Shown in pieces: positions 806 through 14,756 of a stretch of DNA of 14,756 bases. The translations under genes and the position numbers were made by a program. The notes under the pieces were generated by a model, which worked only from the letters and a program-made list of their open reading frames with translations, was not told where the DNA came from and did no database searches. Every line of letters begins with the position of its first letter. The first letter of the stretch is position 1. The stretch comes from an uncultured Candidatus Poseidoniales archaeon (lineage in GTDB: Archaea > Thermoplasmatota > Poseidoniia > Poseidoniales > Thalassarchaeaceae), in NCBI GenBank assembly GCA_964645485.1, contig CAZXZO010000015.1:29210-43965 (forward strand), written 5' to 3'.

Positions 806-2056
806 TCAACTTTCAATTAAAGCGGATAGAATATCTTGATCTAGTAACTCCCAAGGAAATAGCCCATCTACACCAGGTGTTCGACCGAAATGACCACCTG
901 AAGCAGTTGGTGAATAAATTGGGTTCAGCAGATTCAATCTATTTATGATTGAATTAGGAGTGAAGTCAAATTGTTCCTTCACTCTTTTAGCAATCTCAGA
1001 CTCGTGCACTTTTGATGAGCCGAATGTTTCTACTCGAATGCTAACTGGTTGAGCCACTCCAATGACATAAGCCAATTGAATTTCACATGAGTCTGCAAGG
1101 CCAGCAGCCACCACATGTTTAGCCGCCCACCGTGCAGCGTAAGCACCTGAACGGTCAACTTTGCTAGGGTCTTTTCCAGAAAATGCTCCCCCCCCGTGTC
1201 TACCCATTCCTCCATAGGTGTCAACGATTACTTTCCTGCCTGTTAATCCAGCATCCGTCTGAGGCCCTCCCGGGTCTGCAAATCTTCCAGTTCCATTGAC
1301 AACGATTTTGGTATCTTCATCCAATAATGAACTTGGTAATGCATGCTCAATTACATGCTCACGGATTTCTGACTGTACGAATTTTAACTCTTCTTTCTCG
1401 TCACCACCAAACCTATCTTTTAGACGGCTATCGTGTTGAATGGCGATTATCACGGTGTGAATCCTACTTGGTTTACCACCATCATCGTACTCGATTGTAA
1501 CCTGACTTTTACCATCTGGCCTTGCCCAGGATAAATGGCCTTCAGCGTCTGCTGGTAGTTCTCTAACATTCTTGAGACGACGAGTCAATCGCTGTGATAA
1601 CGCTGCAGCAAGAGGGAAAAATCTGCCTTTTAACTCCTCATAATCTTCTGTTTCTGTGCAGGCAAAACCGAACATCAAGCCTTGGTCTCCCGCACCATCC
1701 TTGTCAACACCTTTGGCAATATCCGGTGCTTGAGTTGTTATGAATTGTTGAACTTTGCATTGAGAATTTGAGGTAGCATCTAGCCCTATTTCATGATCTC
1801 TGTAGCCAATCATTGCAGCAGTTGTTCTCGCGATAGACTCGTAATCTGGGGCGTCTCCGTTCAGACGGACTTCACCAGCCAGAACGATGTGACCCATTCC
1901 ATTAACTGATTTTACCAAAGTTTCAACTGCCACTCTGGCATTTTTGTCAACTTGCAAGCAAGCATCAACAACTGCATCAGAAATAGCATCACACAACTTG
2001 TCCGGGTGGCCACAGGTTACTGACTCGGAGGTGAATAAGAGTCCTTCTTTGCCCAT
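806..2056 (-). CDS. metK: S-adenosylmethionine synthetase (methionine adenosyltransferase), bacterial/eukaryotic type
   Basis: Hallmark motifs LFTSESVT(C)GHPDK, GAGDQGLMFG, GLTGRKVIVDTYGG, GGGAFSGKDPSKVDRSGAYAAR and GHFGR; 416 aa. Confidence 0.97.
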   Translation of the reverse strand: MGKEGLLFTSESVTCGHPDKLCDAISDAVVDACLQVDKNARVAVETLVKSVNGMGHIVLAGEVRLNGDAPDYESIARTTAAMIGYRDHEIGLDATSNSQCKVQQFITTQAPDIAKGVDKDGAGDQGLMFGFACTETEDYEELKGRFFPLAAALSQRLTRRLKNVRELPADAEGHLSWARPDGKSQVTIEYDDGGKPSRIHTVIIAIQHDSRLKDRFGGDEKEELKFVQSEIREHVIEHALPSSLLDEDTKIVVNGTGRFADPGGPQTDAGLTGRKVIVDTYGGMGRHGGGAFSGKDPSKVDRSGAYAARWAAKHVVAAGLADSCEIQLAYVIGVAQPVSIRVETFGSSKVHESEIAKRVKEQFDFTPNSIINRLNLLNPIYSPTASGGHFGRTPGVDGLFPWELLDQDILSALIES

Positions 2057-3691: not shown

Positions 3692-5497
3692 TCAAGGCTG
3701 ATATTTACTCCAGTCATCATCACTTGCCCATGCACCCGCAGGCACATATTGTTGATGAGAAGGAACTGGTGCCTGCTCACGGCGGCTCTTGGATGAAGCA
3801 ACTCCAACCATAACAGCAGTTAGAACAACTATTCCAAGTGCCAACGGCAGTAGGCGGAAAAGTTGGCTAACTAATTTGCCGAAATTTCCATTTCCGTAGA
3901 AGATTGGATCATTGAATGATTGGGTGTCAATAGTAATGACATCTGTTGAAAATTCTGGGTCGTGGTAAACAGTTTCTCCAATTACGAAATTGTATCCACC
4001 AACTAGACGCATGCCAGACCACAAACCTTCTTCCCCATTAACATCAGAGTGAGTTACTGGGCGAGCCCCATGAACTTGGAAGAGAACTTCGGTCTCAACA
4101 CCATCAACTGTAGCATTTGATACCCAGCGGACACGACCTAAGTTCGCACCATTATCATCGAAGTGTATTGCTCCTGCACGAATTGCTTGTGGCCTTGATT
4201 CACTTGTCAAATCCATGACATCACCGCGCTGCATACATGCGGTGTCATGGTACTGCTTCATCTTCTCATGCACTACATCTCTACGCTTTTCATCATCCGT
4301 TTTTTCATCTTCGTCTGATGTATTATCAATTGGTGCCCCGGTTTCTCGCCCTTCAGTATCACCTTCAACTACATCTGAATTAACATAAGCCAAGCCACAT
4401 TCAAGTGGGTTTCCTTCAACATCATGACCTGATGGTGGTGGTGGTGGTGGTGGTGGTGCTTGGCCATCATCTAACATTGGACTATCATGGTCTGAAACCA
4501 TTGCACGTGACCCATGCCCTGCAATTGCACGAGGAGATATCATGCCACCAAACTGCTCTTTCATCCATTCACCAACTGTGTCAGACATGTGAACACCATA
4601 AGCGAGGTCAGTAAGGACTACTAATCTAGTATCATTTCTTTGCACGCCATCAACATCGGTTGCAATGTCCCAACCTCGTACAACTTGGTCATATTTCCAA
4701 GTGGTATTCAATACGTGTCCAGTAACATTGGTTGTAGCAACTAATTCAGTACTGTCAATCTGATCACCTGGCACTGCATCTCCGCGGGCGAACACTTTGT
4801 AATGAGGTGCTGCTTGAACATGAATTTCTTGCTCAACTGTAGTAACATGGAATTTGTAAGCAATACGCCCGACAGTCATACCATCAACGACTCCATCGCT
4901 AGACTGATAGGTAATATTTTCAGAACTGAGCACGAAATTAATGTCAACTTCGTTTTCATTAACACTTTGACGCCAATGAGAAAGAGTCCACGAAACATCA
5001 TTGTAATCAACCCATTTCAATAAATCTTCATGGCTAACATGAGTATCATCTAACTCTTCAATAGTACCAACAACTTTTGGACCAGTTACATCAAATAAAC
5101 CGTTTTCATTTTCATCAACATATTCACCTGCTCCAATCAATCGTTGATGGAAAATAGAATGTGTTGGGATTCCAACTCTTTCAGAGAACCCTCTTTTCCC
5201 ATCGTAAATATCAGCAATCCCCATGTATTTTGTTTGCACAGTGGTCATCCCAATTCGACCATCCCCATAATGGATAAACATGTCCGCTTCTCCTAACTTT
5301 AGAGATATTTTCCCATTCTCTAAGTCTTGTTCTACGACAATTTGTTCGCGCGTGTAATCAATATCTTCGCCAGGTGCCTTTTCCAAAGGTGCGCCTGTTC
5401 TCCCTGCTTGAGCCGCTCCAAAACCTGAACTCATCATCAATACTACAATAGAAATAGCCAAGATTGAACTAATTCTTAATTTTCTCTCGACGGCCAT
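3692..5497 (-). CDS. Secreted, C-terminally membrane-anchored surface protein of unknown function (601 aa from ATG 5497)
   Basis: N-terminal signal peptide (RKLRISSILAISIVVLMMSSGFGAAQA), long beta-rich acidic ectodomain, C-terminal TM helix (LLPLALGIVVLTAVMVGVA) and short tail. ATG 5497 is preferred over 5512/5545 because SD-like GGTGGAG (5504-5510) lies 6 nt upstream and TTATAT (5533-5538) 36-41 nt upstream. Confidence 0.85.
   Translation of the reverse strand: MAVERKLRISSILAISIVVLMMSSGFGAAQAGRTGAPLEKAPGEDIDYTREQIVVEQDLENGKISLKLGEADMFIHYGDGRIGMTTVQTKYMGIADIYDGKRGFSERVGIPTHSIFHQRLIGAGEYVDENENGLFDVTGPKVVGTIEELDDTHVSHEDLLKWVDYNDVSWTLSHWRQSVNENEVDINFVLSSENITYQSSDGVVDGMTVGRIAYKFHVTTVEQEIHVQAAPHYKVFARGDAVPGDQIDSTELVATTNVTGHVLNTTWKYDQVVRGWDIATDVDGVQRNDTRLVVLTDLAYGVHMSDTVGEWMKEQFGGMISPRAIAGHGSRAMVSDHDSPMLDDGQAPPPPPPPPSGHDVEGNPLECGLAYVNSDVVEGDTEGRETGAPIDNTSDEDEKTDDEKRRDVVHEKMKQYHDTACMQRGDVMDLTSESRPQAIRAGAIHFDDNGANLGRVRWVSNATVDGVETEVLFQVHGARPVTHSDVNGEEGLWSGMRLVGGYNFVIGETVYHDPEFSTDVITIDTQSFNDPIFYGNGNFGKLVSQLFRLLPLALGIVVLTAVMVGVASSKSRREQAPVPSHQQYVPAGAWASDDDWSKYQP
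4433..4456 (-). repeat. Perfect (CCA)8 trinucleotide microsatellite encoding Pro8
   Basis: Plus strand reads (TGG)8 at 4433-4456; protein reads GQAPPPPPPPPSGH. Confidence 0.95.
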
Positions 5498-5532
5498 TCT
5501 GTTCTCCACCATGCACTTCCGTAGTTCTACAC

Positions 5533-5538
5533 ATATAA
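5533..5538 (-). promoter_or_regulatory. Putative TATA box (TTATAT) for the 601-aa surface protein gene
   Basis: ATATAA on the plus strand at 5533-5538, at the edge of the AT-rich divergent intergenic region. Confidence 0.45.
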
Positions 5539-5710
5539 TGGACATAGGGTAATAAATACCATTTTTTTATTCACATATACCAACAATTTGCCTTCTGAAA
5601 AATTGTTTTAACGCAAAAATTTGCATTTTTTCTATTGTTAACCTAATTCTTAGGATTATGGAGAAAAAGGGCGCTTTCGTTGCCAATTTTCTTTGTTTGA
5701 TGGCGACGGC

Positions 5711-7184: not shown

Positions 7185-7412
7185 TTGACTCCAGAGAATT
7201 CGAAAAAGGTCTGGGCTTACATTCAAGAAGCGGGAGAAAAACTAGTTGGAAAACTACCACCATCTCACCGTCACCCAAGTGGCAGAAATCCGTATGCCCA
7301 TGTTGCAATCTGTGTGAGGTCTAAGTTTGGTCAGTCTTACAAAGACCTGCCTGATGAACAAATTGACGACGTGATTGAGTACATCGATTACCTCGTTGAG
7401 AACCCTTCCTAA
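7185..7412 (+). CDS. Small hypothetical protein (75 aa)
   Basis: TTG start with SD-like AGGACGGTGG at 7171-7180. Fills the gap between aspS and the next gene on the same strand. Protein-like amphipathic helices and motif HPSGRNPYAHVA...KFGQSYKDLPD. Confidence 0.75.
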   Translation: MTPENSKKVWAYIQEAGEKLVGKLPPSHRHPSGRNPYAHVAICVRSKFGQSYKDLPDEQIDDVIEYIDYLVENPS

Positions 7413-7473: not shown

Positions 7474-8220
7474 ATGCCCGAGGGGAACAAGCCGACTTTT
7501 GCCTTTTTACTTCTAAAGGAGCATCCATATGGTCGTGAAATGCTCTACCAAATCCTTTCGGAAGGATTTGTTCCAACAATAGTCATCAGTGAAGATTCTG
7601 ATATCGCTGATGAAGAAAGAGAGAAATTCCTTGACCGAATTTCTGGTAACCCAATTGCCCCAACAATTGAGTCTCAACTAAGTGAATTACAATCTGATGG
7701 CATTGAAGTCCCCCATATCTGCGTTCCAATTCACAATTCTGAAAATGTTATGCCTCACATTTCTGATATGGATTTAGATCTAATTGTCTTTGGAGGAACT
7801 AGAATTATCCGTGGAGAAATCCTCGAACATCCCTGTGATGGGGTAATCAATTCACACCCTGGTCTCTTGCCTCACTGTCGTGGCTCTGCAAGCCCTGCAT
7901 GGTCGGTTTATCATGACATACCGATTGGCTCTTCAACTCACTTCTGTGATAATGGGATAGACACTGGAGAACTGCTACTAACCCGTGAATTACCGGTGGT
8001 CAAAGGGATGACTTACGAAGACCTGTGCTACCATACATTGGTGCTCGCAGGGGTTTTAATGAAAGAGGCTTTATTGGCTTATGAGGCTGGAAAATGGAGT
8101 GAAATTCGTCACCCGCAAGGTGAAAGCGAGCACCCTACCTTCCGTAACGCGCCAGAAGAGGTGTTGCAGGTGGTTCGTCAAAAATTGGCAGACTTAACAT
8201 ACGCCCACTATGTAGACTAA
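7474..8220 (+). CDS. Formyltransferase-family protein (Formyl_trans_N; Fmt-like, no C-terminal tRNA-binding domain)
   Basis: INSHPGLLPHCRGSASPAWSV...GSSTHFCDNGIDTG retains the Asn-x-His...Asp catalytic set (7849-7857, 7960-7962) and the Fmt-like 'LP.yRG..P..W' motif; only about 248 aa. Alternative TTG start at 7465. Confidence 0.85.
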   Translation: MPEGNKPTFAFLLLKEHPYGREMLYQILSEGFVPTIVISEDSDIADEEREKFLDRISGNPIAPTIESQLSELQSDGIEVPHICVPIHNSENVMPHISDMDLDLIVFGGTRIIRGEILEHPCDGVINSHPGLLPHCRGSASPAWSVYHDIPIGSSTHFCDNGIDTGELLLTRELPVVKGMTYEDLCYHTLVLAGVLMKEALLAYEAGKWSEIRHPQGESEHPTFRNAPEEVLQVVRQKLADLTYAHYVD

Positions 8221-8233
8221 AGGAGATGAAAAA

Positions 8234-9040
8234 ATGGAGAATATATCACCACTTGCGAATGATGCATTAGAAGGACGCCATGCAATTGTTTGTGGAGCAT
8301 CGGCTGGAATCGGCCGCTCAACAGCCATGACATTAGCCGCGGCCGGAGCCGAATTAACACTGGTTTCTCGGTCGGCAGACAAGTTGACTTCTCTTGCAAA
8401 TGAATGCCATAATGCTGGCTCCCCCAGAGTCCATGTGTTGCCGATAGATTTGGAAGATGGGCGGGCGATTGATGCTTTGATTCCAGCCCATCTGAAAAAA
8501 TTTGGAACTGCTCACATTCTCATCAATAATGCCGCCGGACCTCCGTCCGGCCCACTCTTGAATGCATCAGATGATGATTTTCTCAAACCGCTCAAGCGCC
8601 ACCTATTCGCTGCTCAGCGAATGGTCAAACATTGTTTACCTGGCATGGAGGAGAAACAACATGGCAGAATTGTGAACATCATCTCAACCTCAGTTCGTGA
8701 GCCTATTGCCAATCTTGGGGTTTCCAATACCGTGAGAGGAGCAATGGCGGGCTGGTCAAAAACACTAGCCACCGAACTTCCTTCTTGTGTTAGCATCAAC
8801 AATATCTTACCGGGCTTCACAAATACCGGTAGACTTGATTCACTCGCCCAACAAATCTCTGAGACAAAAGGGATTACTCCGGACGATGTTCGCTCTACAT
8901 GGCTTTCAGGAGTGCCCGCCGACCGCTTGATTGAGCCTGAAGAAACCGCGGCGGCGATTGCATTCCTTTGTTCTGATGCGGGTGGTGCAATCCGCGGTGT
9001 TTCACTCGCTGTTGATGGCGGCAGAATGCGCTCAATTTAA
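8234..9040 (+). CDS. SDR-family oxidoreductase, atypical FabG-like subgroup with SxxxR in place of YxxxK
   Basis: Rossmann motif CGASAGIG, NNAAG, GRIVNIISTSV, LGVSNTVR, NNILPG.T, VDGG. SD GGAG upstream, 13 nt after the previous stop. Confidence 0.9.
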   Translation: MENISPLANDALEGRHAIVCGASAGIGRSTAMTLAAAGAELTLVSRSADKLTSLANECHNAGSPRVHVLPIDLEDGRAIDALIPAHLKKFGTAHILINNAAGPPSGPLLNASDDDFLKPLKRHLFAAQRMVKHCLPGMEEKQHGRIVNIISTSVREPIANLGVSNTVRGAMAGWSKTLATELPSCVSINNILPGFTNTGRLDSLAQQISETKGITPDDVRSTWLSGVPADRLIEPEETAAAIAFLCSDAGGAIRGVSLAVDGGRMRSI

Positions 9041-9049
9041 GGTGAAAAT

Positions 9050-10288
9050 ATGCAGTTTGATGTTTTCTTTTCGATATCGCAGACGCCAGACTCTACTGGT
9101 TACTGCCCCGATGAGCAAACAATGTATTCCAACTACATTGAACAGTTGAAACTCGCAGATAATCTAGGATATGGAGTTGCTTGGATTGCTCAGGCCCACC
9201 TCTCCACCGAAGTTCAGAAACGTAACCGTAATCCAGTAATTCCTCATTGGGAAGGAGAGGTTGGTTTGTGTACTGATTTTTTCCAATTAGCAGCGCTTTC
9301 ATTTGCTGAAACTGAACACATTGAAGTGGGCTCGGCCGTACTTTCAATTCTAGCTAATGGTGGCCCAATCGCAGTTGCTGAAAGAGTAGGGAATTTTTGT
9401 GCGCTACAAGAATTAAGAGGTGACTCAAGGAAATTACACATCGGATATTCTGCTGGAAGATTCCAATTTATGGCCTCGCCTTACGGTGTAATCCCGCGTG
9501 ATGCAGTCGAGGAAAAAGCATGGCCTGCTTTACGCGGTCAAATCTTTTGGGAAGCCAGCGAAATATTCCTACGCTTGCTAAACGGTGAAGCATTCTCATC
9601 AGATTCGGTACGAAAAACAACTCTTACAATAGACAACTTCCGTAGTGATGAAGATTGGCAAGCAGTACAAGAAGCGGCAATTGATGTCAGAGGTTTGGCT
9701 GAGCCGCCTCAAGAAATTGAAATTCCTCGGCACTATCAATTTGAGGAAATAAAAAGTATCCCACAGGATTGGAATCGAGACCTTCTCTCACTAACGCTTG
9801 GAAGTCACGAACCGGCTTTACAAATTGAGGCTAACAAGTATCGCCCAGTACAGGTTTTCAATCTGTCAATTACTGCTCCTGAACTCATAGAAGCAACTCA
9901 TGAAAGAATGACTGAATCCTACCACCAAAGTGGAGGAGAATGGCAGCGAAATATGATGCCAAGAACTGTCATGGTATTCTTGAATAATGAAGAAGGGCTC
10001 ACTCGTGAAGAGCAATCAGCCGCAGCAAACAAAGAGGCAAAAGCCACACTAGATTCATACTGGAATGCGCTTGAAGGGACTATTGACCCTGCAAAAGTTT
10101 CCAAAGCGGCAAATAACGCTGTTATCGGAAACGCCAAGGAAGTTGCCGCCCAAATTGTTGAAAGATTCCACCCTGACGACCGACTAATGCTATGGTTCGA
10201 CTTCTTCCGCCATGACTCCTCTCGCGTTCAGCGTGATATGGCTGCATTCATCAATGAAGTCGCACCCTTAGTAAATGGAGATGAGTGA
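9050..10288 (+). CDS. Luciferase-like (LLM class) flavin-dependent oxidoreductase/monooxygenase
   Basis: MQFDVFF start, EQLKLADNLGYGVAWIAQAH, TEHIEVGSAV, AERV..F..L, G RLHIG-like segment (KLHIGYSAG), and C-terminal VIGNAKEVAAQI...DRLMLWF match the LLM TIM-barrel pattern. Archaeal SD GGTGA at 9041-9045. Confidence 0.85.
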   Translation: MQFDVFFSISQTPDSTGYCPDEQTMYSNYIEQLKLADNLGYGVAWIAQAHLSTEVQKRNRNPVIPHWEGEVGLCTDFFQLAALSFAETEHIEVGSAVLSILANGGPIAVAERVGNFCALQELRGDSRKLHIGYSAGRFQFMASPYGVIPRDAVEEKAWPALRGQIFWEASEIFLRLLNGEAFSSDSVRKTTLTIDNFRSDEDWQAVQEAAIDVRGLAEPPQEIEIPRHYQFEEIKSIPQDWNRDLLSLTLGSHEPALQIEANKYRPVQVFNLSITAPELIEATHERMTESYHQSGGEWQRNMMPRTVMVFLNNEEGLTREEQSAAANKEAKATLDSYWNALEGTIDPAKVSKAANNAVIGNAKEVAAQIVERFHPDDRLMLWFDFFRHDSSRVQRDMAAFINEVAPLVNGDE

Positions 10289-11456
10289 CTTGACCGAACA
10301 CAACCCATCATCTGTTTCTCCTGGCAGGCCCGGTTCTGGTGTTTATCCAACTAATCCTCTTGGTGAAATTCACGACGGTATACCAACGGGACGTGATGTG
10401 GAGTGGGAGCCACTAGTTGATTTCCGACGCAACGATGTTTCTGAAAATACAATACACGGGGCTGTTGCTTGGGCTCATGGAAACGAAGTAATCCACTCTT
10501 TTGGAGGCAATGTTCTTTGTTACGGACGCTCAATGATGAAACCCCTGATGATGAAAACATTCGTTGATGTGCTAGATGGTGAACTCACTAGCAAGCAAAA
10601 AGCAATCTCCTGTTCATCTCATAACGGTGATACCGAGCACGTTGCTGCTGCACAATCGATTCTCAATGAATCAGAATGGGGATTGATGCAGTGTCCATTA
10701 GATGTGCCTTTGATTCAATTCGGACGTCAAGTCCGTCGTCCACGGCGCTGGTTCCATACTTGTTCGGGCGAACACGCTGCTATCCTCAAAGCACTTCGCT
10801 TGAAAGGAATTAATCGGGCTGGTTACACTCTACCACAATCTGAATGGTTTCCTCTTTTCATTGATGTTCTGAGAGATTTACTTGGGCAACCGGATTGGAA
10901 TCCTCTGCGAGTGGCAAAAGATGGATGCGGATTACCAACGGTTTCCAATACTGTCAACGAATTATCGGTAATGTTTGCTGGCTTAGCGGCCACAAAAGAT
11001 GACGATTGGATATGGGAATCAATGTGTAACCATCCAGACCTTGTGGGCGGGTTCAATCGCCTTGACTCAACGATTCTAAAATGTGGGGAAGGGAAAGTAC
11101 TGGCAAAGGAAGGGGCTGACGGACTGTTAGGTCTTTCAGTGATCCATCCAGATTATCCCAAAGGCTTGGGAATTACAATAAAAATCGCGCACGGTTGGAA
11201 CGCACAAGCAACTTGGTATGTTGCCCGGGCTGTTCTTGGTGTACTAGGAATTGAGTTGAGAAACCCATATCCTTTACATCGGCAAAAAGCGTTTATCGTA
11301 CCCGGTGTTGTACCTCCAAACCTGCTCAAAAACCTCGAAACAGTGGTTACGTGGGATGAGTGGGACCCGAACAGTGACCGATGGTTCTACGACTGGCGAC
11401 AATACTCTGCAGGGTCAAATCATGAAGGGCAGACAGAGGAACAGAATCCAAACTGA
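10281..11456 (+). CDS. Class 3 (Rhizobium etli AnsA / asparaginase II-type) amidohydrolase homologue
   Basis: Ordered motifs RSMMKP (RSxxKP), SSHNG (SHxG), TCSGEH (NCSGKH), DGCGLP and AKEGADG. ATG 10281 overlaps the LLM stop as ATGAGTGA; ATG 10275 is an in-frame alternative. Confidence 0.85.
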   Translation: MSDLTEHNPSSVSPGRPGSGVYPTNPLGEIHDGIPTGRDVEWEPLVDFRRNDVSENTIHGAVAWAHGNEVIHSFGGNVLCYGRSMMKPLMMKTFVDVLDGELTSKQKAISCSSHNGDTEHVAAAQSILNESEWGLMQCPLDVPLIQFGRQVRRPRRWFHTCSGEHAAILKALRLKGINRAGYTLPQSEWFPLFIDVLRDLLGQPDWNPLRVAKDGCGLPTVSNTVNELSVMFAGLAATKDDDWIWESMCNHPDLVGGFNRLDSTILKCGEGKVLAKEGADGLLGLSVIHPDYPKGLGITIKIAHGWNAQATWYVARAVLGVLGIELRNPYPLHRQKAFIVPGVVPPNLLKNLETVVTWDEWDPNSDRWFYDWRQYSAGSNHEGQTEEQNPN

Positions 11457-11465
11457 GGTTGAACA

Positions 11466-12974
11466 ATGGATGAAGAGTGCTGTGATTCTGGATGCAAACC
11501 CTGTGTTTTGGACCCGGAAGATGGTGATATCCCTGACTTACTGAACTACATCTCAGGTGAGTTTCTCCCGGCTCAGTGTGAAGAATGGCTGAATGACCTC
11601 TCTCCAGCGACAGGTATGAGAATTGCTAGAGTCCCAAAATCAAATGCTGATGATATTAATTCGGCTGTAACCTCTGCCCGTGATGCCTTACCTGAATGGT
11701 CATCTCTAAGCCACGCTCAAAGAGCAGATTGGCTGGACAAAATTGCTGATGCCTTGGAAGAGAGATGTGAAGAAGTAGCACAACTTGAATCACTTGACAC
11801 TGGAAAACCAATTTCTTTGGCACGCAATGTTGACGCCACTCGTTCAGTTGCCAACTTCCGTTTCTTTGCTGACGAAGTGAGAAATTTCACTGCTGAAACT
11901 TTTGATATGGAAAATGCCACCAACCATGTTGTCTACAAGCCGGTTGGTGTTGCAGGTTTGATTACTCCTTGGAATCTCCCGCTCTATCTGTTGAGTTGGA
12001 AGGTTGCGCCAGCATTAGCAATGGGTAATACAGTTGTAGCCAAGCCATCTGAAATGACACCAATGACAGCAAGTTTGCTAGCCGAAATCATTGATGATGT
12101 CGGACTTCCCAAAGGTGTCTTTAATCTCGTTCATGGACATGGTGAAGAAACCGGAGCAGCCCTTACTAGCCACTCAGGTGTTGACCTCATATCCTTCACA
12201 GGTGGGACTGCTACGGGAGCCAAAGTCGCAACTGCAGCAGCATCTACTTTCAAGAAATTAAGTCTTGAATTAGGTGGCAAAAATGCCACAATTGTATGTG
12301 CTGATGCTGATATGGAAAAAACCGTTGCAGGAGTCGTAAGAGCCGGATTTCTAAATCAAGGACAGGTCTGCCTTTGTGGCTCAAGAATCCTAATTGAAGA
12401 GAGCATTTACGATGAATTTGTCAGCCAATTCCTCACTGCTGTAGAAGCGATGAAAATTGGCGACCCAGCAGACCCCGAAACAGACCTTGGCGCTCTCATT
12501 TCGGCAGACCATCTCAACAAAGTCAGTGGTTACATTTCCCTAGCCCAAGAAGAAGGCGGTGTCATCCTCTCGGGGGGAACAACACCTGCAGGAATCCCAG
12601 GCCAATTTGAGAATGGCAACTGGCTCTCTCCAACCGTAATAGATGGCCTATCACCAAACAGTAGATGTGCTACTGAGGAAATTTTCGGGCCGGTCGTAAG
12701 CCTACACGCGTTCAGTAATGAAAATGAAGCCATTGAAATCGCAAACTCAACCCAATATGGCCTAGCAGGTAGTGTGTGGACTTCTGATCTAGAAAAAGGT
12801 AGGAGAATCGCTGAGAAAATAGATACCGGAATGGTTTGGGTGAACACCTGGCTTCACCGTGACTTGCGCACCCCATTTGGAGGGGTTAAACACTCAGGTG
12901 TTGGTAGAGAAGGAGGGCGTTGGAGCCTGTCTTTTTACTCACATGCAGTTAACATTTGTTTACACCATGACTGA
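11466..12974 (+). CDS. Aldehyde dehydrogenase, ALDH8 / 2-aminomuconate (2-hydroxymuconate) 6-semialdehyde dehydrogenase-like, with a Cys-rich N-terminal extension
   Basis: ITPWNLPLYLLSWKVAPALAMGN, KPSE, FTGGT, LELGGKN, NQGQVCLCGSR (catalytic Cys), EEIFGPV, and subfamily-typical VWVNTWLHRDLRTPFGGVKHSGVGREGG. SD-like GAGG/GGTTGA upstream. Confidence 0.9.
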   Translation: MDEECCDSGCKPCVLDPEDGDIPDLLNYISGEFLPAQCEEWLNDLSPATGMRIARVPKSNADDINSAVTSARDALPEWSSLSHAQRADWLDKIADALEERCEEVAQLESLDTGKPISLARNVDATRSVANFRFFADEVRNFTAETFDMENATNHVVYKPVGVAGLITPWNLPLYLLSWKVAPALAMGNTVVAKPSEMTPMTASLLAEIIDDVGLPKGVFNLVHGHGEETGAALTSHSGVDLISFTGGTATGAKVATAAASTFKKLSLELGGKNATIVCADADMEKTVAGVVRAGFLNQGQVCLCGSRILIEESIYDEFVSQFLTAVEAMKIGDPADPETDLGALISADHLNKVSGYISLAQEEGGVILSGGTTPAGIPGQFENGNWLSPTVIDGLSPNSRCATEEIFGPVVSLHAFSNENEAIEIANSTQYGLAGSVWTSDLEKGRRIAEKIDTGMVWVNTWLHRDLRTPFGGVKHSGVGREGGRWSLSFYSHAVNICLHHD

Positions 12975-13082: not shown

Positions 13083-14756
13083 ATGACCATCACTGCTGCA
13101 CGAGAAGTCATCGACTTTGTTTATCGCAGAGTCGATGAGGTCAGTGAAACTCTAGAAAGAAAACTCGGTATGGCATCTGTTGTCATCATTTCACTTTCAG
13201 CAATGCTGGGCTCGGGCCTGTTTGTTTTACCTGCTCTAGCAATGTTAGACATGGGAGGAGGCACAACCCCTGTCGGCGGCATTTGGTTGGCTTACTTGGT
13301 GGCAGCGCTTATTGTACTGCCTGGAGCCATTTCCAAAGCAGAGTTAGCGACTGCAATGCCATCATCTGGCGGTTCTTATGTCTATATAGAACGTACATTT
13401 GGACCTTTGATTGGTACAATCTCAGGATTAGGCCTATGGGCAAACTTCATGCTCAAATCTGCATTTGCACTCATAGGATTCAAAGCCTACCTTTGGGTGT
13501 TGGAAAGTCTACTTAATATCACGATAAATATCGAATATGCTGCACTGATTTTGTTATTTTTAATTGTAATCATTAACATCTTGGGACTTAAGAGAATTAA
13601 GAAAGTACAAACGCCAATCGTTCTTACTTCAGTACTATTCCTATTCATAATTTGCATATGGGCAATTTTGACCATGGATTTAGATTGGAATGTGGTATTT
13701 TCAAAAGAGGCATATGGGGCAGGATGGAAGTCAGTTGCTCACACCTCTGCCTTTGTTTTCGTAGCCTATGCTGGTGTTACAAAAATTGCAGCAGTGGGTG
13801 GGGAAATAAAAGACCCAGGTCGGAACATTCCCTATGGCATTCTTATTTCTCTGCTCGTCAGTTGTGTGCTATATGTATCCATCTCTATTGTTATGGTAGC
13901 CGCAGTAGGGCCTATGGGGTACATGAATAATGGTGCGGCAAGAGAGGACCCCATCTATGTTTTTGCAAACGCTGTTGGTGGTGAAACTATTGGCATAATA
14001 GCTTCAATTCTAGCTGTAACCACCATGACTTCAATGGCTCTTGCTGGCATAATGGCTTCTTCTCGATTTCCATTTGCCATGGCGAGAGACAATTTGTTAC
14101 CAGAGGCTTTGGAAAATGTTCATCCAAAATATGAGACACCACACCTTGCAATCATAGGAACTGGAATCGCAATGGCTGTAGCAATCACCCTACTTCCTGT
14201 TGGAGATATTGCAAAACTGGCATCTGGTTTCAAAATAATGATTTTCATAGTTATTAACGGCTGTGTGATGGTCCTAAGGAGAGCATCAAAAACTCATTCA
14301 TGGTATGATCCAGAATGGAAATCACCTCTATATCCTATTTTCCAAATTATTGGAATCGTTGGAGGTATTGTGCTCATATATATGATGGGTGAAAAGGCCT
14401 TAATTGGTGCAGCAGCCTGTTGTTTATTTGGATTGATTACCTACTATTCCTATGGCAAGTCAAGAGCCCACCCAATGCTGACCCCATGGAGAACTGTAAG
14501 AACTGAATTTACAAATTCAGAACAGTATGAGCGAGAGAAGAGTTGGTTGGTATTCCATGCATCCTGTAGCAAGGCACAACCAGACCACCTCACACTCCAT
14601 GAGTTCATTCACGCAATGGAAGTCCTATCCCCTAAAATGGAGCATTTCCACCTAAGAAATCTATTTCATGAGATTGATGAAAATGGTGATGGAGTCATTG
14701 ATGTTAATGAATTCTTAGAATCATTTGACGCTGGAAAGATGCAAAGCGAAGAATAA
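13083..14756 (+). CDS. APC-superfamily amino acid permease with C-terminal EF-hand domain (complete; stop TAA at the window end)
   Basis: TM1 SAMLGSGLF, AELATAMPSSGGSYVYIERTFG, TM6 FVFVAYAG...GGEIKDPGRNIP, SSRFPFAMARDNLLP, HPKYETPH, PLYP; about 12 hydrophobic segments. Canonical EF loop DENGDGVIDVNE at 14676-14711. Confidence 0.93.
   Translation: MTITAAREVIDFVYRRVDEVSETLERKLGMASVVIISLSAMLGSGLFVLPALAMLDMGGGTTPVGGIWLAYLVAALIVLPGAISKAELATAMPSSGGSYVYIERTFGPLIGTISGLGLWANFMLKSAFALIGFKAYLWVLESLLNITINIEYAALILLFLIVIINILGLKRIKKVQTPIVLTSVLFLFIICIWAILTMDLDWNVVFSKEAYGAGWKSVAHTSAFVFVAYAGVTKIAAVGGEIKDPGRNIPYGILISLLVSCVLYVSISIVMVAAVGPMGYMNNGAAREDPIYVFANAVGGETIGIIASILAVTTMTSMALAGIMASSRFPFAMARDNLLPEALENVHPKYETPHLAIIGTGIAMAVAITLLPVGDIAKLASGFKIMIFIVINGCVMVLRRASKTHSWYDPEWKSPLYPIFQIIGIVGGIVLIYMMGEKALIGAAACCLFGLITYYSYGKSRAHPMLTPWRTVRTEFTNSEQYEREKSWLVFHASCSKAQPDHLTLHEFIHAMEVLSPKMEHFHLRNLFHEIDENGDGVIDVNEFLESFDAGKMQSEE

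Follow-up and report, generated by a model that had tools for sequence, protein, structure and literature searches.

A five-gene locus as the probable middle of a dispersed, kynureninase-free tryptophan catabolic system in Poseidoniales

A cluster of five tightly packed genes in a marine archaeon raises the question of which aromatic compound is broken down there and by which chemistry. The cluster lies in a stretch of 14,756 nucleotides (the window), which is positions 29210-43965 of contig C15 in an uncultured Poseidoniales (Marine Group II) genome that is 82% complete. Its genes encode a formyltransferase-fold protein (g1), a short-chain dehydrogenase/reductase (SDR) without the catalytic tyrosine (g2), a divergent luciferase-like monooxygenase (LLM, g3), a class 3 asparaginase-family hydrolase (AsnII, g4), and an aldehyde dehydrogenase (ALDH, g5). 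A first-pass annotation had proposed that they form one archaeal operon for a kynurenine-linked catabolic route in which canonical enzymes are replaced, and this proposal is supported by genomic context. The cluster is the archaeal, Marine Group II form of a widespread operon, and the synteny of the genes is far above chance. The five genes probably form the middle of a dispersed nine- to ten-gene tryptophan catabolic system that does without kynureninase and would convert kynurenine to aspartate and 2-aminophenol.

All five genes are read in the same direction. A gap of 13 nt separates g1 from g2, and gaps of 9 nt separate g2 from g3 and g4 from g5. The overlap of g3 and g4 is 14 nt when g4 starts from the ATG at 10275 and 8 nt when it starts from the ATG at 10281; the 8-nt overlap reported in the first-pass annotation corresponds to the second ATG, and its other spacing figures were confirmed. 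Shine-Dalgarno-like motifs precede g2 (AGGAG), g3 (GGTGA), and g5 (GAGGT), in agreement with the three of four junctions named there. The next gene, an APC-family permease, follows g5 after 108 nt.

The operon is found far outside the archaea. A profile search with g3 against the species genomes of GTDB returned at least 591 loci. Those from outside Poseidoniales belong mostly to marine metagenome-assembled genomes labelled Planctomycetota, Myxococcota, 'Deltaproteobacteria', and others, at 56-62% identity, and 50 such loci were examined. Many of the 50 loci are cut by contig ends, and genes there were located by tblastn, as open reading frame (ORF) calls are unreliable at 75% GC. The g4 gene was found in 39 loci, g5 in 38, AmnB in 27, AmnA in 26, the RidA-family gene in 24, and the tryptophan 2,3-dioxygenase gene (TDO) in 24. 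A gene of the PF04199 cyclase family, which includes the kynurenine formamidase KynB, occurs in 23. Nine genes stand in one order, TDO-SDR-LLM-AsnII-ALDH-AmnB-AmnA-RidA-KynB, within 7.6-10.4 kb in 13 of the 50 loci, and 22 loci hold at least eight of the nine. Order and strand are shared by 25 of the 26 loci with at least six genes. The g2 orthologue lies directly upstream of the LLM gene in 42 loci; the statement in the first-pass annotation that SDRs with this signature occur in bacterial kynurenine clusters was borne out, with the gene placed between TDO and LLM in TDO-containing clusters. A cysteine-dioxygenase-type cupin gene (PF05995) is situated directly upstream of TDO in five of the 50 loci (e.g., L089:7444-8037 and L092:7409-7978).

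The same association is seen within Poseidoniales. The genes g3, g4, and g5 are collinear in all three sampled families of the order, so that the neighbourhood is conserved in these families as well as in dozens of bacterial loci, and g2 is adjacent or within 2 kb. TDO was detected in 39 and AmnB in 37 of the 41 Poseidoniales genomes. In two congeneric genomes (G003 and G010), a thiolase gene lies downstream of TDO on one strand, and the divergently read g1-g2-g3-g4-g5-AmnB-AmnA-RidA run follows without interruption, ending next to purP. In the genome studied here, a locus on contig C1 (C1:115076-118627) has TDO between the same thiolase and purP genes without the operon. These shared flanks indicate that the operon moved between that site and the aspS site, where it stands in the window, within one genus. 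A role at the end of the pathway is possible for the conserved thiolase encoded downstream of TDO.

The remaining genes of the system were located on a third contig. This 2.7-kb contig, C55, is taken up by AmnB, AmnA, and a gene of the RidA family. In genome G014, whose operon proteins are 94-97% identical, g3-g4-g5 and the permease gene are followed after 2.3 kb by AmnB-AmnA-RidA on one strand, and C55 aligns to this G014 stretch at 89% nucleotide identity. Because of this alignment, C55 very probably lies just beyond the end of the window, which is also the end of contig C15. In the family Poseidoniaceae, unrelated genes are inserted between the SDR and LLM genes, and the ALDH gene is followed at a distance of 2 kb by AmnB and an AmnA::RidA fusion. 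The fusion in G026 (L013:1669-3099) is a 476-aa ORF with LigB and Ribonuc_L-PSP domains; the two genes are separate in the present genome. G022 (96% complete) was considered as a genome lacking g1, g3, and g4 and was rejected, as its contig ends 555 bp upstream of AmnB, most likely at an assembly break. The five genes are thus not the whole unit that the first-pass annotation took them for. TDO and amnBA-ridA belong to it too and are dispersed in this genome.

Several enzymes of the textbook kynurenine pathway were not detected. The 41 Poseidoniales genomes, of which 17 are at least 90% complete, yielded no kynureninase (TIGR01814, over its cut-off), nor did 20 bacterial genomes with a near-complete operon. 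KynB was found in none of the 41 Poseidoniales genomes, though it is present in bacterial operons. It was noted earlier that TDO, KynB, kynureninase (KynU), 3-hydroxyanthranilate dioxygenase (3-HAO), 2-amino-3-carboxymuconate semialdehyde decarboxylase (ACMSD), and RidA genes are all missing from the window. This is correct for the window, and for the 82%-complete genome it holds in part: TDO and a RidA-family gene are present elsewhere, together with AmnB and AmnA, and KynU, KynB, 3-HAO, and an ACMSD-type amidohydrolase (Amidohydro_2) were not found. TDO is therefore the only enzyme found of the canonical set TDO, KynB, kynureninase, 3-HAO, and ACMSD. The amn-type set (AmnB, AmnA, semialdehyde dehydrogenase, and deaminase) is complete, and in G003 and G010 it is contiguous with g5. 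With TDO and a 2-aminophenol module present and the textbook middle enzymes not found, the gap falls exactly where the conserved SDR, LLM, and AsnII genes sit. A kynureninase-free tryptophan route through a 2-aminophenol-type intermediate is considered highly likely.

AmnB and AmnA point to the ring-cleavage substrate that this module would use. AmnB of this genome matches the beta subunit of 2-aminophenol 1,6-dioxygenase (8IHG_A) at E=9e-104, and AmnA matches the alpha subunit (3VSG_A) at E=7e-43.

g5 encodes the enzyme expected after ring cleavage. It matches PF00171 Aldedh with 573 bits, and its best NCBIfam model is 2-hydroxymuconic semialdehyde dehydrogenase (HMSADH; TIGR03216), with 590.9 bits, which is under the equivalog cut-off of 693.25. 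Its best PDB matches are the 2-aminomuconate semialdehyde dehydrogenases (AMSDH) 4U3W (E=9e-149) and 4I1W (E=3e-143), and the earlier assignment to the ALDH8/AMSDH type therefore stands. E268 and C302 of g5 align with Glu268 and Cys302 of AMSDH, and R126 and R465 align with Arg120 and Arg464 (4I1W); none of the four varies among 51 orthologues. In the Pseudomonas fluorescens enzyme, the two arginines bind the substrate carboxylate. By its sequence, g5 falls within the AMSDH/HMSADH clade and corresponds to no curated equivalog. A lineage-specific N-terminal extension of g5 (window 11466-11540) with a CC-x2-GC-x2-C motif is shared by only a handful of the 51 orthologues. It resembles PF09791 (Oxidoreductase-like, N-terminal) at E=8e-4 and 19.5 bits, below the cut-off of 24 bits.

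Together with these data, the following pathway can be proposed. TDO, encoded on contig C1, would make N-formylkynurenine from tryptophan, and g1 would take off the formyl group and pass it to water or to tetrahydrofolate. The conversion of kynurenine to 2-aminophenol demands that the C-C bond between ring and carbonyl become a C-O bond. For this step, g3 would insert oxygen between the kynurenine ring and the side-chain ketone to give the beta-(2-aminophenyl) ester of aspartate, which the neighbouring aromatic amine could rearrange to N4-(2-hydroxyphenyl)asparagine. A beta-aspartyl product is the substrate expected for an asparaginase homologue, and g4 would hydrolyse either form to L-aspartate and 2-aminophenol. 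AmnAB, encoded on C55, would then open the ring to 2-aminomuconate 6-semialdehyde, which g5 would oxidize to 2-aminomuconate. The RidA-family protein of C55 would deaminate this to 2-oxohex-3-enedioate; the bacterial 2-aminomuconate deaminase belongs to the PF01042 family and yields this product (bioRxiv 10.64898/2026.06.05.730449). g2 would either reduce 2-oxohex-3-enedioate towards 2-oxoadipate or supply reduced flavin to g3, and the permease may import the substrate. The match of AmnAB to 2-aminophenol enzymes and the failure to find 3-HAO and ACMSD imply that the LLM and the hydrolase stand in for kynureninase and detach the side chain from the ring. The substrates and reactions named here for g1 to g4 are all putative, and the specific Baeyer-Villiger and hydrolysis chemistry is given an even chance.

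g3 encodes the divergent LLM. Its match to PF00296 Bac_luciferase scores 36.4 bits (cut-off 27.9) and covers residues 1-182 only, i.e., the N-terminal half. A search of PDB sequences gave a single marginal match (E=0.011), and only 308 representatives among 1.84 billion proteins clustered at 50% match g3 (E<=0.001). An AlphaFold2 model built from 36 sequences has a pLDDT of 93 and adopts the LLM TIM barrel. Foldseek with this model returned 152 PDB matches at E<=0.001, with LLM-fold enzymes on top. g3 has no match to the RutA family model. The hallmark of LLM enzymes is the attack of a flavin peroxide on a carbonyl group, as in luciferase, type II Baeyer-Villiger monooxygenases, and RutA, and with an aryl ketone the aryl group migrates. 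g3 is thus a putative flavin-dependent oxygenase that would attack kynurenine or N-formylkynurenine at the aryl-ketone carbonyl. Relatives of g3 at 37-40% identity on two unrelated bacterial contigs have an Asparaginase_II gene directly downstream, and the contexts of the distant homologues P0133, P0123, and P0163 were uninformative. Another homologue, 47% identical (GCA_053747735.1, L023:8001-10397), is located between a LysE exporter gene and a PrnB-like gene near trpA/trpB. At this locus, a TDO gene is 7.7 kb away and an asparaginase-like gene is absent; it may represent a different tryptophan-derived pathway that uses the same LLM clade. The 1501-aa protein P0124 combines a g3-like LLM (46% identity) with GATase and ApbE flavin-transferase domains, and the link to ApbE hints at a flavin cofactor.

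g4 encodes the hydrolase that would follow. It matches PF06089 Asparaginase_II with 146.3 bits (cut-off 25), and its PDB matches are the Rhizobium etli asparaginases 8CLY and 7OS3 (E=1e-15 to 1e-12). Alignment of 51 orthologues revealed the invariant residues R85-S86-x2-K89, S115-H-N-G, C163, C218, and K278. Both Ser-Lys pairs and the Arg before the nucleophile are shared with enzymes that release aspartate from a beta-amide. An altered metal ligand had been noticed in the first-pass annotation, and this was borne out: the C-S-G-K-H of the R. etli zinc site reads C-S-G-E-H in g4, with Glu166 in 50 of the 51 orthologues and both Cys kept, so that the Cys-Lys-Cys site as such is lost. Identity of g4 within Poseidoniales is 72-97%. 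Of five bacterial genomes in which the locus has no g4, four carry it elsewhere. g4 is a putative beta-aspartyl aryl ester or anilide hydrolase that would release L-aspartate and 2-aminophenol.

Two other routes from kynurenine have to be weighed against this chemistry. In the first, the LLM would replace kynurenine 3-monooxygenase (KMO) and AsnII would replace kynureninase, AmnAB would cleave 3-hydroxyanthranilate, and the ALDH would act on the resulting semialdehyde. This hydroxyanthranilate route explains the linkage of the operon to TDO and KynB equally well. 3-Hydroxyanthranilate is chemically a 2-aminophenol, and, as 3-HAO was not found, its replacement would be required. However, a Ser-Lys amidohydrolase would have to break a C-C bond, a reaction that kynureninase carries out with pyridoxal phosphate. 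A decarboxylase for the carboxylated semialdehyde would also be needed, and the ACMSD type was neither found in the genome nor seen among the operon genes compared. Moreover, AmnB is nearest to the solved 2-aminophenol and 2-amino-5-chlorophenol dioxygenases, and the AMSDH arginines of g5 fit a monocarboxylate semialdehyde. The hydroxyanthranilate route is thus improbable. The same 2-aminophenol context speaks against two earlier suggestions, namely that the LLM is a hydroxylase in place of KMO and that the amidohydrolase is a deformylase or deaminase; neither is supported.

In the second route, AsnII would split kynurenine to anthranilate and alanine, and the LLM would decarboxylate anthranilate oxidatively to 2-aminophenol. 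This anthranilate route also ends in 2-aminophenol and fits AmnAB, the ALDH, and RidA. An analogous reaction, the conversion of salicylate to catechol, is performed by flavin monooxygenases of another class. We know of no precedent, however, for C-C hydrolysis by PF06089 hydrolases or for decarboxylative hydroxylation by LLMs, and the kept Ser-Lys pairs and Arg suit a beta-aspartyl substrate better. The probability given to the anthranilate route is equally low.

A third alternative concerns the substrate itself and depends partly on the permease. The SDR-LLM-AsnII-ALDH block could act on some other N-aryl or N-acyl amino compound that the cell imports, e.g., a conjugate of aminophenol, with the TDO link being regulatory or coincidental. 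An APC homologue is found beside RidA or the ALDH gene in G001, G005, G014, G021, G022, and G040, so the association of the downstream permease with the cluster, as first annotated, recurs in archaeal relatives. It was found in none of the 50 bacterial loci. The permease is a candidate importer of tryptophan or a related substrate and is linked to the cluster as a non-core gene. Its EF-hand pair occupies residues 502-547, and this fusion appears unusual. The other-substrate reading can draw on this archaeal linkage, on the location of TDO on another contig in this genome, and on the 47%-identical LLM homologue beside a PrnB-like gene and trpBA. On the other hand, the co-directional operon itself contains TDO and KynB in many bacterial loci from several phyla, G003 and G010 have TDO directly next to the cluster, and the operon-bearing genomes have no other recognizable use for kynurenine. 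An unrelated substrate is therefore quite improbable, more so than the two routes above. Two further observations were made at the permease position. The G014 permease is only 68% identical, versus 94-97% for the flanking operon genes, and G013 has a Na+/H+ exchanger gene and a weak PAP2-like match there. With a divergent or replaced permease in these genomes, the region after the ALDH gene looks like a variable cassette site.

For the removal of the formyl group, g1 is the candidate. It matches PF00551 Formyl_trans_N with 44.9 bits and is far under the cut-offs of PurN (TIGR00639, 37.9 vs 150) and Fmt (TIGR00460, 33.7 vs 201.5). The C-terminal domain of Fmt was not found in g1 with Pfam and NCBIfam models. 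The best PDB matches are the hydrolase domain of 10-formyltetrahydrofolate dehydrogenase and PseJ. Asn126, His128, and Asp163, as well as the folate motif HPGLLP-x2-RG, are invariant in nine orthologues. These orthologues are confined to Thalassarchaeaceae (f1) and a second family (f2) and always adjoin the SDR gene. In Poseidoniaceae (f3), the slot is taken by an alpha/beta hydrolase gene that overlaps the SDR start by 4 nt. This hydrolase is present in 14 of 14 genomes of f3, in none of the 24 of f1, and in neither of the two of f2; it is absent from the present genome as well. The strictly complementary occupancy of the slot suggests that KynB, g1, and the alpha/beta hydrolase are three non-homologous solutions for deformylation, either of N-formylkynurenine or of a formylated later intermediate. 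The earlier idea that the formyltransferase-like gene handles a formyl group is plausible on these grounds, with KynB not found, and a deformylating role for g1 is slightly favoured. As both the folate motif and the catalytic triad are intact in g1, it could hand the formyl group on to tetrahydrofolate. N10 of tetrahydrofolate is an aryl amine, so formyl exchange should be near isoenergetic. Even so, transfer rather than hydrolysis is put forward only tentatively.

g2 encodes the SDR, for which two roles can be considered. It matches PF00106 adh_short with 127 bits and has a conserved Rossmann Gly-rich motif, G21-x-S-x-G-I-G. As stated in the first-pass annotation, the Tyr-x3-Lys motif is missing; the position reads N165-x2-R168, invariant in 54 orthologues. 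The closest structures are the uncharacterized Burkholderia SDRs 5VA8 and 5IDX, which have the same S-N-x2-R signature. Arg46 suggests dependence on NADPH. First, g2 may be a reductase at substrate level that acts on a ring-fission dicarboxylate, e.g., from 2-oxohex-3-enedioate to 2-oxoadipate. Plasmid-borne homologues of the same Tyr-less, Arg-bearing subfamily (36-39% identity; S-N-T-L-R in Shinella, S-A-A-V-R in Caballeronia) adjoin genes of the FAA-hydrolase family in three of five contexts, and one is part of a VOC dioxygenase-amidohydrolase-SDR-FAH cluster. FAA-hydrolase neighbours without an LLM favour the substrate-level role, which would also explain why the operon has no decarboxylase, hydratase, or aldolase genes. 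This role is rated just short of an even chance. Second, g2 may be the flavin reductase of g3, a reading that fits its position next to the LLM gene, a reaction in which the catalytic acid can be dispensed with, and a genome in which no Flavin_Reduct gene was found. This second role is rather unlikely.

Several points weigh against the proposed route. TDO, the window genes, and amnBA-ridA are on three separate contigs in this genome. No characterized orthologue of g1, g2, g3, or g4 was found. The structural neighbours of g3 comprise LLM oxygenases, luciferases, 3,6-diketocamphane monooxygenase, and RutA, all at 13-16% identity; 4UWM, of the diketocamphane type, ranks 18th at 13% and is no closer than luciferases or sulfonate monooxygenases. 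Judged from the model, nothing appears to single out a Baeyer-Villiger reaction over hydroxylation or another LLM reaction. A search of this 82%-complete genome gave no reductase of the Flavin_Reduct family as a source of reduced flavin for g3, and in the five plasmid contexts the SDR homologues are never beside an LLM. A counterpart of g1 was found in none of the 50 bacterial loci and not in Poseidoniaceae, and its assignment is drawn from position and complementary distribution. The alpha/beta hydrolase of Poseidoniaceae was considered as a recognizable kynurenine formamidase and rejected, as its match to the Drosophila enzyme 4E11 reaches only E=0.003 and stands among generic carboxylesterases. 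None of the classical genes of the lower meta-cleavage pathway (4-oxalocrotonate decarboxylase, hydratase, aldolase, and acetaldehyde dehydrogenase) was identified; the search, which was confined to the FAA-hydrolase family, turned up a single generic gene of 214 aa in an unrelated context. A search with the 5.5-kb operon gave no RNA dataset among the matches. With g3 alone, four runs were matched with small shares, two of which are true RNA runs and gave contigs of 151-269 nt at about 90-95% identity on g3. The only contig spanning a junction (g3/g4) came from a probable DNA run, and co-transcription was not demonstrated. That the five genes are adjacent yet not one functional unit, as this last result, the lack of g1 in Poseidoniaceae and bacteria, and the unrelated insertions between SDR and LLM in Poseidoniaceae would allow, is very improbable in view of the gaps of 13, 9, and 9 nt, the overlap, and an order conserved over three archaeal families and several bacterial phyla.

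The features of the window that concern the system are collected in Table 1. Upstream of g1 lie metK, a gene for an HTH protein, a 617-aa ORF, aspS of the non-discriminating type, and a 75-aa ORF. The 75-aa ORF (window 7185-7412), between aspS and g1, has no Pfam match; it is found at the same position in G005 with 95% protein identity and may be a real small protein. metK (window 806-2056) is of the bacterial/eukaryotic three-domain type (PF00438, PF02772, and PF02773) and stands beside aspS in several Poseidoniales. An archaeal-type S-adenosylmethionine synthetase would be expected in an archaeon. Two ORFs of 617 aa (window 3692-5545) and 220 aa (3-662) have no Pfam domain. The first is 58-73% identical in genomes of the same genus, and the second is about 31-33% identical in the other two families.

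Table 1. Coordinates of the five genes and the adjacent permease gene, as positions in the window
Feature	Position	Strand	Domain or fold evidence	Remark
g1, formyltransferase-fold protein, 248 aa	7474..8220	+	PF00551	
g2, Tyr-less SDR	8234..9040	+	PF00106 adh_short	
g3, divergent LLM, 412 aa	9050..10288	+	PF00296 Bac_luciferase and fold model	
g4, class 3 asparaginase-family hydrolase	10275..11456	+	PF06089 Asparaginase_II	alternative start 10281
g5, AMSDH/HMSADH-type ALDH	11466..12974	+	PF00171 Aldedh	
APC-family permease with C-terminal EF-hand pair	13083..14756	+	PF13520, PF00324, EF-hand models	

Poseidoniales are among the most abundant planktonic archaea, and their use of amino acids shapes the turnover of marine dissolved organic nitrogen. 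The presence of TDO in 39 of their 41 genomes, with neither kynureninase nor KynB found, is a gap that the operon would fill. If the proposed route is true, it would be a third exit from kynurenine, besides kynureninase and transamination. It would give functions to three large uncharacterized groups, namely a narrow LLM clade, the Glu-variant class 3 asparaginases, and the Asn/Arg SDRs. It would also tie tryptophan catabolism to enzymes that cleave aminophenol rings and have until now been known from degraders of nitroaromatics, and it would yield aspartate directly from tryptophan breakdown. In Thalassarchaeaceae, the formyl group of N-formylkynurenine might be kept via tetrahydrofolate and not lost as formate. 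KynB, g1, and the alpha/beta hydrolase alternate in one slot, which makes them a clear candidate for non-orthologous displacement. A description of the route was not found in the full-text literature searched, the coverage of which leaves out subscription journals. It is a speculative but possible outcome that marine archaea and bacteria have an LLM 'kynurenine Baeyer-Villiger monooxygenase' and an asparaginase-fold 'beta-aspartyl-aminophenol hydrolase', with formyl transfer to tetrahydrofolate by g1 in Thalassarchaeaceae in addition.

In comparison with known systems, the genes read as the head of the kynurenine pathway and an amn-type tail, apparently joined by enzymes without a characterized relative. 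Clusters for meta-cleavage of 2-aminophenol are amnBACFEDHG of Pseudomonas sp. AP-3, cnb of Comamonas sp. CNB-1, and nbz/nba. With these clusters, the operon shares a two-subunit LigB-type 2-aminophenol 1,6-dioxygenase (compared with the solved AmnAB/CnbC structures 8IHG, 3VSG, and 7TXY), an AMSDH, and a RidA-family deaminase in the same relative order. It differs in being fed by TDO, with KynB or g1, and by the SDR, LLM, and AsnII rather than by nitrobenzene or aminophenol uptake. The decarboxylase, hydratase, and aldolase genes of the lower pathway are missing from the operon, and none was identified in this genome.

The canonical kynurenine pathway, including the cluster of Burkholderia cenocepacia (bioRxiv 10.64898/2026.06.05.730449), has the same TDO head and the same end, an AMSDH-type ALDH and a PF01042-type deaminase, and KynB is common to it and the bacterial operon versions. 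A search of 61 operon-bearing genomes, in contrast, gave no kynureninase, and KynB, 3-HAO, and ACMSD were not found in the present one. Ring cleavage in the operon is assigned to a LigB-type dioxygenase, unlike the cupin 3-HAO of the canonical pathway.

The proposed middle steps also have relatives in logic. Aryl ketones are degraded through Baeyer-Villiger oxidation by 4-hydroxyacetophenone monooxygenase (HAPMO), and an esterase then releases hydroquinone. The same order of oxygen insertion between ring and carbonyl, hydrolysis to a phenol, and ring cleavage would apply here. HAPMO, however, has a different fold and works as a single FAD-dependent component, and the esterase that goes with it is from another family. 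The type II LLM Baeyer-Villiger monooxygenase 4UWM (3,6-diketocamphane monooxygenase) has the same LLM fold as g3 at only 13% identity. The Rut pyrimidine pathway consists of the LLM oxygenase RutA, the amidohydrolase RutB, and the RidA-family protein RutC. It matches the proposed scheme in the sequence of an LLM with a flavin peroxide acting on a carbonyl, an amidohydrolase, and a RidA-family protein acting on an enamine or imine. It differs in the substrate and in the hydrolase, as RutB has the isochorismatase fold and g4 that of asparaginase II. Finally, g4 shares PF06089, both Ser-Lys pairs, and both Cys of the zinc site with ReAV and ReAIV of R. etli (7OS3 and 8CLY), whereas its zinc-site Lys is replaced by Glu and its identity to them is low (E ~1e-14). 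For g4, the genomic context predicts N4-aryl-asparagine or a beta-aspartyl aryl ester as the substrate instead of free asparagine.

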